The notes under the pieces were generated by a model. The model ran no database searches and was not told the DNA's origin. It saw only the letters and a list, made by a program, of their open reading frames with translations. 64,000 nucleotides of DNA, from positions 119,426 through 183,425 of the forward strand of contig JAHFNC010000002.1 of the NCBI GenBank assembly GCA_023267535.1, given 5' to 3'. Below, piece by piece: positions 4,281-50,441 of the stretch. How positions within the stretch are numbered: the stretch's first letter is position 1; each line of letters begins with the position of its first letter. The DNA comes from a bacterium (GTDB lineage: Bacteria; Patescibacteriota; Minisyncoccia; Phycocordibacterales; UBA5272). The position numbers and the translations under genes were made by a program.

Positions 4281-5261
4281 ATGTTAATTGACCATATCAC
4301 ATTAAATGTAAAGGCCGGAAAGGGAGGGGACGGCGTAGTCAGATGGCGCCGTGAGAAAGGAATTCCATACGGAGGACCAGCGGGCGGTGACGGAGGAAAA
4401 GGCGGAAACGTTTATCTTCGCGTTGTTCGTGATATCGAAGCTCTTTCGGTTTATAAACACAAAACTGAGTGGGATGCTCCAGAGGGAGAGTCAGGACAAA
4501 AAAGAAGTATGCACGGAAAGGGTGCTGAAGATTTATATTTGAATGTTCCGATTGGCTCAGTTATTTATAATCGCGAATACGATATCAAGTACGAGTGCAT
4601 GGAAGAAGGAGAAGAGATTCTTGTTCTTAAGGGTGGAAAAGGTGGACTTGGAAATGAAAATTTTAAATCTGCTACCAACAGAGCACCAATGGAATTTACC
4701 AAAGGTCAGATTGGAGAGTTCGCGACATTTGATGTTGAACTTGAACTAATTGCTGACGCTGGAATAATTGGTCTACCAAACGCCGGAAAATCATCACTAC
4801 TGAATTCTTTAACTAGAGCTGGAGCCAAAGTTGGCGATTATCAATTCACCACTCTTGAGCCAAACTTAGGCGCTTATTATAAATACGTTTTAGCCGACAT
4901 CCCAGGACTCATAGAAGGTGCGAGTGAAGGAAAAGGGCTCGGTCACAAATTTTTAAAGCACATCAGAAGAACAAGAGAATTAGTTCACTTAGTGTCAGCT
5001 GAAAATGAAGACATCAAGCAAGCTTACAAAACTATTCGCGAAGAACTTGGAAAATTTGATAAAGAACTTTTGAAAAAAGAAGAAATGGTGGTGTTGTCAA
5101 AATCAGATACTGTATCAGAAAAAGATTTAGAGAAGAAGAGAAAAGATTTGGAGAAAGTAAGTAAAAGAGAAGTAACCGTCTTATCTTTATTTGAAGACAA
5201 ATCCGTAAAAGAATTTGGTGATAGATTTATTAAGTCTATGGAAAAGGGGATGTTGGAATAA
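4281..5261 (+). CDS. obg: GTPase Obg/CgtA
   Basis: Obg fold N-domain (KAGKGGDGVVRWRREKGIPYGGPAGGDGGKGGNVYL), G1 GLPNAGKSSLLN, DIPGLIEGA. Confidence 0.9.
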   Translation: MLIDHITLNVKAGKGGDGVVRWRREKGIPYGGPAGGDGGKGGNVYLRVVRDIEALSVYKHKTEWDAPEGESGQKRSMHGKGAEDLYLNVPIGSVIYNREYDIKYECMEEGEEILVLKGGKGGLGNENFKSATNRAPMEFTKGQIGEFATFDVELELIADAGIIGLPNAGKSSLLNSLTRAGAKVGDYQFTTLEPNLGAYYKYVLADIPGLIEGASEGKGLGHKFLKHIRRTRELVHLVSAENEDIKQAYKTIREELGKFDKELLKKEEMVVLSKSDTVSEKDLEKKRKDLEKVSKREVTVLSLFEDKSVKEFGDRFIKSMEKGMLE

Positions 5262-6313: not shown

Positions 6314-7723
6314 TTAAAATTGTTTGATTATTTCTTGAAACATTTGTGGATTTCCACTTCCTTTACTTTCTTTCATACACTGACCGACAAAAAACATTAA
6401 TAGCTTTTCATTACCACCCTTAAATTCATTCCACTGTGTTTCGTTTGCTTTTGCTACAGTTTCTACAATTTTCTTTAATGCTTCAATATCATTCTTCTGG
6501 ATTAATCCTAATTCTTCAGCCTTTTTCTTAACATCTAAATTTTTATCAGTTAGCATAAAAGGAAGTAAATCCTTTGCTCCGCGAGAGGATAATTCATTTG
6601 CAACAATCATATCAATTAATTCTCTAAAAGATTCTATTGATGGGAAATTAGAAGAGATAAGTTCCTTACTATCTTTTTTAAGAAGACCAAAAATATCTGC
6701 CACTAAATAGTTTGATGCTAGATTAGCATAATCATTATTTTTTCCTTCAATTACTTTTTCAAAATAATCTGCAGTAGACATATCGTTTAGAATTATTTCT
6801 ACGGCTTCATCTTTAAGTGATAATGATTTATATTTTTCTCGTCTTTCTTTTGGAAGTTCTGGAAGTTCTTTTTTCAATTCTTCAATATCAAAAAGTTCTG
6901 ACAAATAAAGTTTTGGAAGATCGGGGTCAGGGAAATAACGATAATCATGAGCATTTTCTTTTTTGCGTTGACTGAAAGTTATTTGTTTGGTTTCATCCCA
7001 TCCGCGAGTTTCTTGAACAATTACACCTCCTTCATTTAAAACTTCAATATGTCGCGCGATTTCAAATTTTATTGCTTCTTCTACTGAGCGAAACGAGTTT
7101 AAATTTTTTACTTCAACTTTTGTGCCGAATTTTGAATCTTTTGAAACAGAAATATTTGCTTCCACTCTCATTTGTCCCATTTCCATATTGGCTTCGGATG
7201 CTCCCACATAACGAAGTATCCTTTGAAGTTCTCTGGCGAAATTTCCAGCGTCTTCAGCATTGTGAATAACTGGCTCAGTAACAAGCTCCATAAGAGGAAC
7301 TCCTGCGCGATTAAAATCAATCAAAGTGTAACCGTCGTTATCATGACCAGACTTGGCAGTATCTTCTTCCAAATGAATACGAGTAAGAGCAATACCTTTT
7401 ATTTCTCCATTTGATACGATAGGGAGCTTGTATTGTGATAACTGATAACCTTTTGGAATATCTGGGTAAAAATAATTTTTTCTATCAAATTCTGTAAAGT
7501 CGGCAATATCTGCACCAACTGACAATCCAACTTTTATTACTTTTCTTATAGCTTCTTTATTTGGAACGGGGAGTGTTCCAGGGTGTGCCATACACACTTC
7601 ACAAATATTTGTATTTGGCTTCTCTGCATTTGGGTCATTCTTACAACCACACCACATTTTGGAATTGGTGTGTAATTCGGCGTGTATTTCAAGACCTATG
7701 GTTGGAGTGTATTCGTTAGACAT
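6314..7723 (-). CDS. gatB: Asp-tRNA(Asn)/Glu-tRNA(Gln) amidotransferase subunit B
   Basis: N-terminus MSNEYTPTIGLEIHAELHTNSKMWCGC...CEVCMAHPGTLPV is typical GatB. Confidence 0.9.
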   Translation of the reverse strand: MSNEYTPTIGLEIHAELHTNSKMWCGCKNDPNAEKPNTNICEVCMAHPGTLPVPNKEAIRKVIKVGLSVGADIADFTEFDRKNYFYPDIPKGYQLSQYKLPIVSNGEIKGIALTRIHLEEDTAKSGHDNDGYTLIDFNRAGVPLMELVTEPVIHNAEDAGNFARELQRILRYVGASEANMEMGQMRVEANISVSKDSKFGTKVEVKNLNSFRSVEEAIKFEIARHIEVLNEGGVIVQETRGWDETKQITFSQRKKENAHDYRYFPDPDLPKLYLSELFDIEELKKELPELPKERREKYKSLSLKDEAVEIILNDMSTADYFEKVIEGKNNDYANLASNYLVADIFGLLKKDSKELISSNFPSIESFRELIDMIVANELSSRGAKDLLPFMLTDKNLDVKKKAEELGLIQKNDIEALKKIVETVAKANETQWNEFKGGNEKLLMFFVGQCMKESKGSGNPQMFQEIIKQF

Positions 7724-7767
7724 TTGTAAATTGTATCAAAAAATGTCTATTTTTTAAAGCCCGTTAT

Positions 7768-10152: not shown

Positions 10153-10235
10153 GCCGGAGTGGCGGAATGGTAGACGCGCACGACTCAAAATCGTGTATCG
10201 TAAGGTGTGAGAGTTCGAGTCTCTCCTCCGGCACA
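10153..10235 (+). tRNA. tRNA-Leu (anticodon CAA), type II with a long variable arm
   Basis: Acceptor gccggag/ctccggc, anticodon loop cuCAAaa, T-arm gagttcgagtctc. Confidence 0.85.
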
Positions 10236-20965: not shown

Positions 20966-21016
20966 AGGTGTAACAAAATACAATATAACAAATTTTTTCA
21001 ATAAACAAAAAGAATA

Positions 21017-21166
21017 CTTCGTGAGACGCAGGCGGGAGAATCGGTCACGAATAATTTTTTCGCCGTCGCTCAAAAATTTTCTCGACCCCGTCTTGCTCGT
21101 TTTGCTTGCTAGCAAAACATAGCTCCGACCTTCGACTCCCGACAAAAGCCAAACTATTGGCTTTTT
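21017..21166 (-). repeat. tRNA-associated conserved element, tRNA-Cys copy (terminator hairpin, inverted copy of the tRNA-Cys T-arm/3' end, GGGGTCGAGAAAA...GCGACGGCGAA core, 22 bp direct repeat of the tRNA-Cys 3' end)
   Basis: 21017-21038 cttcgtgagacgcaggcgggag equals 21177-21198; 21125-21143 is the reverse complement of cgggagtcgaacc; the core resembles the copies at 34663 and 62737. Confidence 0.6.
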
Positions 21167-21183
21167 CCTTCTCTCACTTCGTG

Positions 21184-21258
21184 AGACGCAGGCGGGAGTC
21201 GAACCCGCGAATGGCGGTTTTGCAAACCGCAGCGTTAGGCCACTTCGCCACTGCGTCT
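21184..21258 (-). tRNA. tRNA-Cys (anticodon GCA)
   Basis: Reverse complement gives agacgca...gcggtuuGCAaaaccgc...cgggttcgactcccg...tgcgtct. Confidence 0.85.
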
Positions 21259-21537: not shown

Positions 21538-21562
21538 ATTCGTGCTAGCACGAGAAACAAAA

Positions 21563-22919: not shown

Positions 22920-23001
22920 GCCCAGGTGGCGAAATTGGTAGACGCACTTGCCTTAGGAGCAAGCGCCGTAAGGCATGAAGGTTCAAGTCCTTTCCTGGGC
23001 A
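22920..23001 (+). tRNA. tRNA-Leu (anticodon TAG), type II
   Basis: gcccagg...cttgccuUAGgagcaag...long variable arm...ggttcaagtcc...cctgggca. Confidence 0.85.
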
Positions 23002-23233
23002 CATCAATAGAAAAATACAGACTTTCCAGTCTGTGTTTTTCTATTGACTGTGTCTCTGTAGAAGAAAGCCAACTGCTTGGCTTTCGTAAGGACTTGAATA
23101 CGGGGTCGCGAAACTACTTCGAGCGGAGCGAGGAGTTTCGTGACCAAGCCATTTCGAAAAGATTCCTTTCCTAAAATAAAAAGATATGTTTCGTGACTAA
23201 GTCTTTAGTATATATCTTTAATAAGAAAAGAAA

Positions 23234-34550: not shown

Positions 34551-34634
34551 GCGTAGGTGGTGGAGTGGTCAATCACAACAGACTGTAAATCTGTCGCCCT
34601 TCGGGCTTCGCTGGTTCAAATCCAGCCCTACGCA
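34551..34634 (+). tRNA. tRNA-Tyr (anticodon GTA), type II with a long variable arm, no encoded CCA
   Basis: gcgtagg...acagacuGUAaaucugu...cgcccttcgggcttc...gctggttcaaatccagc...cctacgca; preceded by an extended -10 tgctataat. Confidence 0.85.
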
Positions 34635-34662
34635 CAAATAAAAATCCCGAAAGGGATTTTTT

Positions 34663-34800
34663 GCGTAGGGTTGGATTTGAACGGGAAAGGGGTCGGGAAA
34701 ACGGGAGTTTTCCCGTGGCGGAAGAATGGAAACCGAGGGGTTTCCAAACCGAAGCGATTGATAATGAGCGAAGGTTGTGAAATTACAGCCCTACGCACCA
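34663..34800 (+). repeat. tRNA-associated conserved element, tRNA-Tyr copy (inverted copy of the tRNA-Tyr T-arm/3' end, roughly 100 nt conserved core with two hairpins, direct copy of the tRNA 3' end)
   Basis: Terminator aaaaatcccgaaagggatttttt at 34640-34662; gcgtagggttggatttgaacg at 34663-34683 is the reverse complement of the tRNA 3' region; core GGAAAGGGGTCGGGAAAACGGGAGTTTTCCCGTGGCGGAAGAATGGAAACCGAGGGGTTTCCAAACCGAAG; cagccctacgcacca at 34786-34800. Confidence 0.6.
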
Positions 34801-34854
34801 TTTAGCACAATTAGTAACTCGTGACCAAATCAGAGCCCCTCACCAAAAGATTAA

Positions 34855-49123: not shown

Positions 49124-49702
49124 GTGGCTGGTTACGATGGTTCTGAGGGTGAATCACCTTGTAGTAGAAACAATTCTGAAGGGTGTGAGAAATGTCGTAG
49201 AGGATGTTTCCCGTACTCTGCTTTAATAGAAACACCCAGTGGTAAGATCCCTATTGGAGATTTAAGAGTAGGGCAAATGGTTCTATCTTATAGCAATACC
49301 GGTATTCTAGTGCCAAGACGTATCACGCGCAAATTATCGTATGGCCCAGCCTCAATTGTTAGAGTTGAGTTTACGCCTAACAAGACACACCTAAACTGTA
49401 CCGAGAGTCACAGTTTCCTGACCGGTAGAGGTTGGCTAGCTGTTAAAAAACTTCACTCAGGTGATAGTATTTTTCAGGCTAAGACCTCCCGCATCAGCCC
49501 AATACAGATTCGCAGAATCACATCAACTGGAAAAATGGAACCGGTGTTCAACCTTTATACGGAAGGTGAACACAATTTCATAGCCGATGATTGCATTGCT
49601 CATAACTTTACATTCCTTAGAGTGTTTAGGATGGCTTTGCACAGAATTTTCTTTGATAATTCTTCCAAGATTATGTTCGGCCAATTGACCGGACAAAACT
49701 AA
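49124..49702 (+). CDS. Stand-alone Hint (intein/bacterial-intein-like) domain protein with a Cys-rich N-terminal peptide and a 31 aa hydrophobic C-terminal tail; GTG start
   Basis: Hint blocks CFPYSALIETPSGKIPIGDLRVGQMV (N-terminal Cys), TESHSF (TxxH), EGEHNFIADDCIAHN (terminal HN); GC-richer patch. Confidence 0.6.
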   Translation: MAGYDGSEGESPCSRNNSEGCEKCRRGCFPYSALIETPSGKIPIGDLRVGQMVLSYSNTGILVPRRITRKLSYGPASIVRVEFTPNKTHLNCTESHSFLTGRGWLAVKKLHSGDSIFQAKTSRISPIQIRRITSTGKMEPVFNLYTEGEHNFIADDCIAHNFTFLRVFRMALHRIFFDNSSKIMFGQLTGQN

Positions 49703-49889: not shown

Positions 49890-50441
49890 ATGAAATTACA
49901 CAACCTCGCATTTATCGACACCGAAACAACAGGACTTGATCCAAATAAGCACGAAATAATAGAACTTGCCGTGATTGTTGCAAAACAAATACCACGCGAA
50001 GGCAGAGGCCCTAAGTTAGAAGTTATTGAAGAATATGAATGGAAAATAAAACCTCTTCATATAGAAACTGCTGAAGAACAAGCTCTTCGCGTGAATGGAT
50101 ATAACGAAGTAGATTGGATGTTCGCTCTTGATTTAAAACCCGTCATGGAAGAATTTTCTAAAAAAACTGAAAGCGCAATTTTCGTATCACACAATTTAAC
50201 TTTTGATTATAATTTTTTGATGAAAGCCTTTGAAGAAACAGGAGTAGAAAATAGAATGCATTATGGAAAATTAGACACGATATCAATTGCTTTCGCTAGA
50301 TTATATGACGCACCACTAGCTGAAAGATTTTCTCTAAAGGCAATTGCTGAATTATTAAAAGTAGAAAACACTAAAGCACACACCGCACTTGCCGATACTA
50401 GAGCTTTGTTTGAATCATATCGTAAACTTATGGGGGCTTAG
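49890..50441 (+). CDS. DnaQ-like 3'-5' exonuclease (DEDDh)
   Basis: Exo I AFIDTETTGLD; Exo III HTALADTRAL. Confidence 0.75.
   Translation: MKLHNLAFIDTETTGLDPNKHEIIELAVIVAKQIPREGRGPKLEVIEEYEWKIKPLHIETAEEQALRVNGYNEVDWMFALDLKPVMEEFSKKTESAIFVSHNLTFDYNFLMKAFEETGVENRMHYGKLDTISIAFARLYDAPLAERFSLKAIAELLKVENTKAHTALADTRALFESYRKLMGA

Follow-up and report, generated by a model that had tools for sequence, protein, structure and literature searches.

Short structured elements with target-matched flanks behind tRNA genes of Patescibacteria

Elements behind four tRNA genes of the window

The DNA described here is a stretch of 64,000 nucleotides, further called the window, from a bacterium of the Patescibacteriota (Candidate Phyla Radiation, CPR; assembly GCA_023267535.1, contig JAHFNC010000002.1, positions 119,426 to 183,425 of the forward strand). 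With the use of ARAGORN and Rfam eight tRNA genes were found in it, and four of them, i.e., the genes of tRNA-Tyr, tRNA-Thr(GGT), tRNA-Cys and tRNA-Leu(TAG), are followed by a short element that is the subject of this report. It is an insertion of approximately 170 nt (about 120–250 nt in the whole family), which contains no protein gene and in which a conserved core is bracketed by copies of the 3′ end of the adjacent tRNA gene. The four tRNA genes without an element mostly have a same-strand gene directly downstream. Half of the tRNA loci of the window are occupied, in a streamlined genome of about 1 Mb, and the elements recur across a phylum that is hard to cultivate.

Read on the tRNA strand, the elements have a constant order: the gene body, the gene end termed X (it begins near T-loop position 60 and extends one or two bases, sometimes more, beyond the discriminator), a spacer that often forms hairpin T1, an optional segment antisense to the acceptor strand together with hairpin H1 (loop CUGC), the segment IC′, which is antisense to the T-loop and the 3′ strand of the T-stem and abuts the core, then the core, and finally X again. 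The core common to the Tyr and Thr copies is called type A, the core of the Leu copy type B, and the core of the Cys copy, which has an extra hairpin H2, type B-long. The initial annotation described at tRNA-Tyr a hairpin, an inverted copy of the tRNA end, the core and a direct copy ending in CCA, and this layout is indeed present there. It also ascribed one core to three tRNAs; the layout is the same at Tyr, Thr and Cys, but the Cys core is a different one, and a fourth copy lies behind tRNA-Leu(TAG). The features of the two type A loci are the following.

34551–34635, + strand: tRNA-Tyr(GTA) gene, the target; no CCA encoded (ARAGORN/Rfam)
34618–34635, + strand: proximal repeat X of tRNA-Tyr, its last ~16 nt, which begin near T-loop position 60 and end one base beyond the discriminator
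34640–34661, + strand: hairpin T1, AAAAATCCC-GAAA-GGGATTTTT; GC-poor and terminator-like, apex of the palindrome made of the tRNA-Tyr 3′ end and its inverted copy
34663–34682, + strand: inverted copy (IC) of the Tyr element, GCGTAGGGTTGGATTTGAAC; antisense to the T-loop, the T-stem 3′ strand and the acceptor 3′ strand; 5′ strand of the closing helix P1
34684–34776, + strand: type A core, Tyr copy, ~95 nt, composed of GGAAAGGGGUC, Pa, GUGGCGGAAGAAU, Pb and Pc
34694–34715, + strand: core helix Pa, with the GNRA-type loop GGGA
34728–34745, + strand: core helix Pb
34747–34776, + strand: core helix Pc, containing GAGCGAAG
34779–34800, + strand: 3′ strand of P1, with the pseudo-T-loop GUGAAAUUA, the direct copy CAGCCCTACGCAC (34786–34798) and CCA
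34818–34845, + strand: decayed remnant of an older type-B-like unit, CTCGTGACC ... CAGAGCCCCTCACCA (compared with type B 3′ ends by eye only)
62625–62700, + strand: tRNA-Thr(GGT) gene, second type A target; CCA encoded
62688–62717 and 62719–62748, + strand: perfect 30+30 nt palindrome of the Thr locus, comprising the tRNA 3′ end and trailer, an AT-rich apex and the inverted copy GGAGCCGTTGGC (62737–62748)
62752–62845, + strand: type A core, Thr copy
62846–62877, + strand: 3′ strand of P1 of the Thr element, with the 14-nt direct copy ACGGCTCCAAATAA (62852–62865)

At the Tyr locus the inverted copy, taken as 34658–34682, is complementary in 92% over 25 nt to the tRNA positions 34614–34638, and the direct copy (34781–34798) is 89% identical to the tRNA end over 18 nt, with 13 nt exact, and ends with ...CCTACGCACCA. 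We interpret the stretch 34779–34800 as the displaced native 3′ end of tRNA-Tyr; the CCA at this locus is found only on the distal copy. The remnant further downstream (34818–34845) has the look of an older type B unit's 3′ end, in which the copied tRNA-Tyr end has decayed. At the Thr locus the repeat extends weakly into a copy of the trailer (62860–62877, 83% identity). The 20-mer TTTTCCCGTGGCGGAAGAAT, common to both cores, occurs twice in the window vs. 0.01 occurrences expected by chance, and in helix Pb there is a compensatory change, namely AGAAACC/GGTTTCT in Thr vs. GGAAACC/GGTTTCC in Tyr. Both elements are predicted to fold into a closed multi-helix structure, the outer helix of which (P1) is made of the inverted copy and the direct copy (RNA folding z = −5.25 for Tyr and −3.27 for Thr). 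The hairpins behind the tRNA genes were at first considered intrinsic terminators; a simple consensus scan does not call them as such, and the Thr hairpin, composed of A and T only, is the apex of the palindrome.

The Cys and Leu loci contain the following features.

21184–21257, − strand: tRNA-Cys(GCA) gene, the target; proximal repeat copy at 21176–21198
21131–21165, − strand: left arm of the Cys element, with H1 AAAAGCCAA tag TTGGCTTTT (21144–21165), GT and the anti-T-loop inverted copy CGGGAGTCGAA (21131–21141, 11 nt)
21035–21134, − strand: type B-long core, with P2 and its internal loop, H2 GTTTTGCTAGCAAGCAAAAC (21099–21118) and the long hairpin P3 with apical GACG
21016–21038, − strand: distal direct copy of 23 nt (100% identity), covering the tRNA-Cys 3′ end and 8 nt of its trailer
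22920–23001, + strand: tRNA-Leu(TAG) gene, fourth target
23003–23172, + strand: type B element behind tRNA-Leu, with T1 (23004–23047) and H1 (23064–23085)
23088–23098, + strand: inverted copy AAGGACTTGAA
23104–23145, + strand: core hairpin GGTCGCGAAACT...AGTTTCGTGACC
23164–23172, + strand: direct copy TCCTTTCCT, 9 nt
23188–23206, + strand: remnant of a further unit behind the Leu element, GTTTCGTGACTAAGTCTTT, 84% identical to 23135–23153

The direct repeats pass the mature tRNA end and reach into the trailer (at Cys, ...TCTCACGAAGT), so they are DNA-level repeats and not mimics of the mature tRNA. As for the ends of the genes themselves, CCA is not encoded in five of the eight window tRNAs (those at 10153, 20883, 22920, 34551, and 21184), where CA stands directly after the discriminator, and is encoded in tRNA-Lys and both tRNA-Thr. 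At many related loci the identity of the direct repeat stops just past this discriminator-adjacent CA. The palindrome CGTGCTAGCACG that follows tRNA-Lys in the window (21541–21556) also follows a displaced tRNA-Lys end in another genome (L048), and it appears to be the native tRNA-Lys trailer.

Cognate flanks and covarying cores across the family

Relatives of the two core types were collected by motif. The type A motif was found at 55 metagenome loci and the 20-nt H2 hairpin of type B at 57 loci in GTDB species genomes, of which all named records belong to CPR lineages except one 2.4-kb contig binned as Bacteroidia; the H2 hairpin of the window is identical to that of locus L028. A same-strand tRNA gene lies directly upstream of 40 of 58 type A copies and about 40 of 58 type B copies, its end being 7–190 nt, mostly not more than ~130 nt, away from the motif. 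Neither motif occurs in 2.9 M viral contigs or in phage and plasmid collections. The first, broad motif (GGGGTCGNGAAA...YYCGTGRC) gave in the viral contigs only chance matches in coding DNA, and the loci L001–L024, which come from that search, are not members of the family.

The targets comprise at least 30 tRNA species, tmRNA, intron-containing tRNAs and two protein genes, rplK and fusA, so that the tRNA 3′ ends named in the initial annotation are targets but not the only ones. The 74 tRNA-linked copies that were scored (37 of type A behind 23 kinds of tRNA and 37 of type B behind 22 kinds) all lie on the strand of the tRNA; the remaining copies are found at tmRNA (L032, L045, L063), at tRNAs holding group I introns (L088, L138, L139) and at non-tRNA targets. 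When the copies were tabulated against the adjacent tRNA, as had been proposed, the flanks were found to follow the cognate tRNA while the core is shared. The median longest exact inverted match to the own tRNA is 11 nt in both types, vs. 6 nt (type A) and 5 nt (type B) to other tRNAs; for the direct match it is 15 nt vs. 6 nt in type A and 9 nt vs. 6 nt in type B. At the 37 type A loci the pairing of the inverted copy with its own tRNA amounts to 469 Watson-Crick pairs, 4 G-U pairs and 8 mismatches. Even unusual T-loops, those of tRNA-Asp (GTCAGCA), tRNA-Tyr (TTCAAAT) and tmRNA, are mirrored by the inverted copy, and at three tRNA-Gly isoacceptor genes of one genome the spacers and cores are near-identical and the inverted copies differ exactly where the T-arms do.

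The point at which the target-derived sequence begins is sharp as well. The identity of the type A direct copy starts at tRNA position 60 in 12 of 33 copies and at positions 56–61 in 23 of 33, and it most often ends at positions 74–75. The bases to the left of this start belong to the element and form a pseudo-T-loop, which reads GUUCGA, GUUUGA or GUGAGA; the last of these would form tandem G-A pairs with UCGAAC.

The cores are conserved as structures. For 42 type B sequences RNAalifold predicted 23 base pairs, 13 of them with compensatory changes. The predicted fold comprises P2, interrupted by a conserved internal loop, then H2 (loop AGCA) and the long hairpin P3, at whose apex stands G(A/G)CG. 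The covariance model built from this alignment, R1, matches the Cys copy of the window with 92.6 bits (E = 1.3e-19) and finds also copies without the exact H2, among them those that in L121 and L133 come immediately behind type A units. In type A there are A-U/G-C swaps in Pa and Pb, and the loops are of GNRA type; the higher sequence conservation of type A as compared with type B is partly due to the fact that the copies were selected by motif. Helix P1 is predicted in 70–77% of copies vs. 19–30% when the 5′ strand is shuffled, and in short type B forms only 4–6 nt are paired. By its conserved G-U pairs the structure is assigned to the tRNA-sense strand. In a promoter scan the sole promoter-like site was located upstream of the tRNA and none inside the element, so any RNA of the element would come from read-through. 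There are also minimal forms (L044, L054, L109, L125, L127, L135), in which no hairpin is present and IC′ comes directly after the tRNA.

Neither core was matched by the covariance models of Rfam 15 at E ≤ 10, with only the tRNAs reaching the gathering score, and the sub-gathering matches on the elements are hairpin-type chance matches to miRNA models. No match on the element was obtained for T-box, tmRNA, Y RNA, self-cleaving ribozymes, HEARO/omega RNA or ROOL/GOLLD within the same collection. The two cores represent two structured RNA families new to Rfam. Resemblance to hammerhead, HDV-like and other self-cleaving ribozymes, to C/D-box or H/ACA-like guides and to RNase P, SRP or tmRNA was considered by eye and dismissed, and it has no Rfam support.

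Orthologous loci, tandem arrays and the rplK and fusA copies

By its ClpB the window belongs to the Paceibacteria/Parcubacteria (CPR), and its nearest relatives are ~82% identical in this protein. Their orthologous tRNA-Tyr loci hold a terminator only (L025), a type B-related element (L026/L027) or three different tandem elements, of which every one terminates with a copied tRNA-Tyr 3′ end (L028–L030); the occupants in L026, L028 and the window are not the same. Since the occupancy varies to such extent among relatives, the locus turns over. Tandem arrays of two or three units were also found at tRNA-Cys (L046) and in L091, L121, L122 and L133, besides that at tRNA-Tyr in L028, and the core types are often mixed within one array (L028, L046, L121, L133). 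Inside the arrays each X passes without a break into the spacer of the unit distal to it, and decay is most advanced in the outermost X. From this gradient it is inferred that units were inserted repeatedly into a restored gene, the newest unit being nearest to the gene. In L102 and L090 the distal copy (GTTCGAGTCCTGGCGGGCGCACA) comes from a tRNA other than the upstream tRNA-Gln, and Pb holds an insertion of ~55 nt; the foreign origin of the distal copy in L102 suggests recombination between dispersed cores. By inspection, at least 2.5 tandem type A units with a period of ~135 nt and no tRNA were seen at a contig end (L137, 1–260), and repeats of this kind probably break assemblies.

At protein genes, the type A core is located at the 5′ end of rplK (L095/L116, L107) and of the EF-G gene fusA (L113), antisense to the gene and between two copies of its first ~20 codons. 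The proximal copy is fused to the gene body and has a start codon of its own behind a short element-side spacer, and the outer copy keeps another start and a truncated open reading frame (ORF) that reads into the element. In L113 the two gene-end copies have 53 identical bases in common. In rplK of L107, 5 of the 20 codons are identical, 12 differ synonymously and 3 non-synonymously; in L095 the corresponding numbers are 9, 8 and 3. Under in-place decay of one copy, a synonymous excess of this size would have a pooled binomial probability of ~1e-6 or lower. Therefore both rplK copies evolved in working rplK genes of different lineages and one of them arrived together with the element, which implies that there was no target-site duplication at this place and that the element carries a replacement gene end. 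This rejection of a target-site duplication applies to rplK only, not to the tRNAs. By analogy, the element would at tRNA genes have brought the proximal 3′ end together with the hairpin, and the native end would have been displaced to the distal position. The inverted copy complements the start of X and, at tRNAs and in L095 (the latter by eye), also the bases to the left of the junction; hence it matches the uninterrupted target across the insertion point.

We consider it rather probable that these are protein-less, non-autonomous miniature integrating elements of CPR/Patescibacteria, which bring a replacement end for conserved genes and displace the native end. Among the three explanations listed in the initial annotation, the one that spoke of tiny mobile elements targeting tRNA 3′ ends has gained most support, given the presence and absence in relatives, the heterogeneous arrays, and the occurrence at tmRNA and, with a foreign gene end, at rplK/fusA.

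Two other readings refer to the same body of evidence. The core may be a resident, vertically inherited non-coding RNA that is co-transcribed with the tRNA and serves in its processing, stability or regulation, or as a minihelix decoy, and that is not mobile, its closing stem having arisen by local duplication of the tRNA end and the cores being kept alike across loci by gene conversion. The structure is under strong purifying selection across the phylum, all 74 scored copies lie on the tRNA strand with no internal promoter found, the hairpin-less minimal forms (L044, L054, L109, L125) imply co-transcription, and related left arms are kept on the same tRNA across genomes. We regard it nevertheless as unlikely, because the rplK/fusA copies, antisense and with a foreign gene end, stay unexplained by it, as do the heterogeneous arrays with decaying distal repeats and the presence and absence at orthologous loci, and because the direct repeats reach the non-functional trailer. 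The mimicry of the tRNA, which was another of the three explanations, is inconsistent too: at Tyr the copy closes with a perfect acceptor stem and ACCA, as a minihelix with free discriminator and CCA would, but at Thr both the discriminator and CC take part in pairing, and the short forms close on 4–6 bp only.

According to the second reading, the insertion is an enzyme-free hitch-hiker, bracketed by ultra-conserved sequence and spread by natural transformation and RecA, with the RNA as cargo. It would agree with the lack of any recombinase found, with the competence gene of DprA in the window and near other copies, with the fact that all targets are among the most conserved bacterial sequences, and with the rplK copies, which show that DNA of another lineage was recombined in. 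This proposal leaves unexplained the origin of the duplication and of a matching inverted copy at a new target, as well as the sharp junction at position ~60 and a closing helix that always comes from target sequence. Repeats of 15–25 nt are short for RecA, and plain recombination gives no transmission advantage. We assign to it a low probability.

Several observations weigh against integrating elements, or against a guiding role of the inverted copy. The Tyr and Thr copies are ~85–90% identical and differ by a compensatory change, which makes them old paralogues and not recent transpositions. Related left arms occur on the same tRNA (e.g., Pro, Cys) in different genomes, which is compatible with long vertical residence and recombination between resident copies; these arms and the identity of the two window copies show many copies to be old residents, and cores may be exchanged between them. 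The evidence for mobility is comparative, neither a free nor a circular form of the element was encountered, and no enzyme was identified in the window or around the ~116 copies. In an unbiased count of G-U vs. A-C oppositions in the helix between the inverted copy and the displaced native end, G-U was not favored. The perfect match of the inverted copy to the tRNA could stem from template-switch correction of the long palindrome and not from selection for guiding; such correction of palindromes is a known mutational process, and only changes on the side of the inverted copy would be tolerated. The direct repeats taken alone look exactly like classical integrase att sites. Finally, the antisense orientation at rplK/fusA leaves the expression of the structured strand unexplained.

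Candidate integration mechanism and related systems

Genes for mobility enzymes were sought in the vicinity of the elements. The ~58 ORFs of the window match in Pfam only housekeeping families (among others DnaG, RpoD, Obg, GatB, MiaA, ParB, RelA/SpoT, TopA, DprA, IF-2, ClpB, LeuRS, SMC, RNase R, TrmD, and CoaE) or none, and there is no integrase, transposase, reverse transcriptase or HUH enzyme among them, in agreement with what was first noted for the adjacent genes. Clustering of the ORFs around the 57 H2 loci revealed only syntenic housekeeping genes (YraN, S20, CCA-adding enzyme, HU, RuvA, Ddl, DprA, RNase Y), and the Pfam-annotated neighbors of atypical loci are metabolic genes, with no linked helper gene or autonomous copy. 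With XerD and Hin probes, ~0.9 Mb (the window and 118 loci) yielded one Xer-type and one large serine recombinase, both confirmed with Pfam and each more than 4 kb from an element. The large serine recombinase (L076, 6464–7999; Resolvase, Recombinase and Zn_ribbon_recom domains) is separated from a type B element by 4.3 kb and adjoins another tRNA. In L026/L027 a gene of the bAvd/23S_rRNA_IVP family (7385–7741), placed 2.3 kb upstream of ClpB, belongs to the accessory genes of diversity-generating retroelements, so retroelement components exist in these genomes.

These results bear on the possibility that the elements are scars or satellites of conventional integration, in which the interior of a prophage or an integrative and conjugative element, inserted by a tyrosine or serine integrase, was deleted and attL, attR and ~150 nt of attP-arm DNA were left. 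The T-loop sublocation of tRNA-targeting integrases and the integration of SXT at the 5′ end of prfC are signatures of classical site-specific integration. Here, too, the tRNA repeats that bracket the element (13–26 nt) start at about position 60 and end at 74–75, just past the tRNA end, tmRNA is a target, and the ends of rplK and fusA are replaced. Similarly to the P4-type elements with tyrosine integrases found in tRNA and tmRNA genes, the element supplies the 3′ end and inserts in tandem. The difference is that 120–250 nt are present with no integrase or other gene, that one core goes with dozens of specificities, and that the interior is structured, shows covariation and includes a target-antisense segment, whereas arms bound by proteins would not show base-pair covariation. 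Since protein integrases are site-specific, scars would require dozens of them: one near-identical core is found at ≥23 tRNA specificities and two protein genes, and neither lineage keeps to one site (type A has 23 and type B 22 tRNA species as targets, besides tmRNA, rplK and fusA). No integrase adjoins any of the ~116 copies, no copy with cargo genes between the repeats was found, and the cores are absent from the viral, phage and plasmid collections mentioned above. We find this origin quite unlikely. The rplK/fusA copies resemble SXT at prfC and the dusA-specific islands in bringing a start codon, a promoter-like spacer and the first ~20 codons and in displacing the native 5′ end; they differ in being tiny and devoid of an integrase and in having a core shared with elements that target tRNA genes.

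Another possibility is that the fold works as single-stranded DNA, in a manner similar to the attC sites of integrons or the attP of CTX, and is read by a Xer-type tyrosine recombinase or a HUH enzyme with no RNA involved. Imperfect inverted repeats around a structured region, a foldable single strand and the newest array unit placed beside the target, like an integron cassette, are common to these systems. The long perfect palindromes made of the tRNA end, the hairpin and the inverted copy would extrude, the motif GCGAAGC recurs beside the junction, and d(GCGAAGC) forms an exceptionally stable DNA mini-hairpin. Furthermore, with the orientation seen at rplK/fusA, the structured strand would have no obvious transcript, and a Xer-type recombinase is present in these genomes. 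Yet the R″ and R′ boxes (RYYYAAC/GTTRRRY) are absent at the junctions, which read ...GCGACG|TTCGAT... or ...GTAGCC|GAATCC..., no integron integrase, HUH gene or cargo ORF was seen, and the target-derived repeats of 15–60 nt far exceed the 7-nt core sites of integrons. The GNRA-type loops and the conserved G-U pairs fit RNA at least equally well. The chance that this proposal is right appears small.

For miniature integrating elements, the preferred reading, the following model can be proposed. A unit, placed inside the end of a conserved gene, consists of its own copy of the gene end (X_e, tRNA positions ~60–75 plus trailer), a spacer (a terminator-like hairpin at tRNAs; a promoter-like stretch and a start codon at rplK/fusA), the inverted copy of 10–22 nt, often split by H1, and a core of type A or B, and it would move in this form (X_e-spacer-IC-core). 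Recombination between X_e and the chromosomal X would insert the unit at a fixed point c, at about tRNA position 59/60 in the T-loop; the target gene stays intact, because X_e is joined to the gene body. The native end (X_n) would be pushed beyond the core, where together with the inverted copy it would constitute P1 and close the core. The movement presumably depends on an activity acting in trans, either a recombinase, a reverse transcriptase or host recombination after natural transformation. The inverted copy, being complementary to the uninterrupted target across c, may take part in the choice of the site, and the core would act as RNA read through from the tRNA promoter or, less probably, as folded top-strand DNA.

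The simplest reading of the specificity is that the site choice is written in nucleic acid, since one scaffold serves more than 30 targets and only X_e and the inverted copy are target-specific. Tentatively, and with a probability that we place clearly below that of mobility as such, this choice would be reprogrammable: when an unoccupied end of a conserved gene is encountered, P1 would open, the inverted copy and X would swap partners with the two target strands, and integration would then be directed either by ribozyme-like activity of the core or by a host or trans-acting enzyme of a generic kind. The chance that the mechanism is new as a category is substantial.

Parts of this logic can be found in known systems. 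The bridge RNA or seekRNA of IS110/IS1111 is likewise a structured non-coding RNA of ~150–200 nt with complementarity to the target, and its specificity could be reprogrammed. In the present elements there is no gene for a DEDD recombinase and no recognizable two-loop target/donor architecture; a single complementary segment pairs with both target copies, and in place of a 2-nt core and 4–7 nt of complementarity there are repeats of 15–60 nt and complementary segments of 10–22 nt. Group I introns, with their internal guide sequence, and IStrons share with the elements a 5′-side segment complementary to the uninterrupted target across the insertion point and the placement in tRNA genes, here of a phylum in which ORF-less group I introns abound (PMC13011429). 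The inverted copy pairs with the T-loop to the left of c and with the 3′ strand of the T-stem to the right of it, which is a likeness of logic only. The elements differ in the core of ~95–110 nt, in the duplication of an end instead of splicing, and in the antisense placement at rplK/fusA, and they give no match to the group I intron model (Intron_gpI, RF00028) at E ≤ 10, although this model does detect true introns in neighboring tRNAs of L088, L098, L138 and L139. Casposons also use tRNA 3′ ends and an elongation-factor gene as targets and have a target duplication of ~15 bp and terminal inverted repeats; here there is no Cas1 or family B polymerase, the terminal repeats are target sequence, and the rplK copies are not target-site duplications. 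Miniature inverted-repeat transposable elements are equally short, non-coding, multi-copy and non-autonomous, but the terminal repeats of the elements described here vary by locus and equal the adjacent gene end (9–60 nt), no short fixed duplication is made, and the insertion is site-specific.

Three further candidates were rejected. A tRNA-primed retroelement with a primer-binding site does not fit, as the inverted copy complements the genomic trailer and not CCA (Tyr, L035). A tandem tRNA duplication with replaced interior would not produce an inverted copy antisense to the T-loop, including the unusual ones of Tyr, Asp and tmRNA, and to the trailer. A splicing intron is not tenable as a general reading, given that the unspliced tRNA is already complete and that the rplK/fusA element is antisense.

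No description of this family was found in full-text searches of the literature. If they are integrating elements, they would be the smallest site-specific ones known to us that keep the target gene intact, and the first in which a structured RNA-like core, and not an integrase gene, travels with the attachment site. Such elements would constitute a hidden layer of CPR genome dynamics, including the recombination between dispersed cores seen in L102 and the foreign gene ends of rplK, and RNA-guided integration without an element-encoded protein would become a testable question. On the practical side, they account for assembly breaks and for mis-annotated small ORFs behind tRNA genes in CPR metagenome assemblies.

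Some minor observations concern the targets and the window itself. In related CPR genomes, four tRNA genes are interrupted by group I introns (L088, 11083–11320; L098, 3811–4050; L138, 822–1126; L139, 916–1113), which is why ARAGORN misses them; behind the 3′ exon of three of the four there are type A elements. In the only related publication found, ORF-less group I introns were described at position 35/36 of Patescibacteria tRNAs, with no group II introns in the phylum (PMC13011429). Near the starts of two contigs a type B element (L053, ~150–240) and a type A element (L098, ~60–140) both follow the same non-tRNA sequence ...GGTTCGAGCAAAGTGTATAATTACAGCACA, for which no Rfam family match was obtained. 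In the window, a 192-aa ORF (49124–49702), in which only a C-terminal Intein_splicing match was found (residues 126–161), may on the basis of this match be a split or degenerate intein, and it is followed by a gene of an RNase_T/DnaQ-like exonuclease (49890–50441). In L047 a tRNA reported by ARAGORN as tRNA-Stop with anticodon TTA (568–641 of the sub-window) precedes a short type B element (H2 at 4838–4857) and may be a suppressor or reassignment tRNA.

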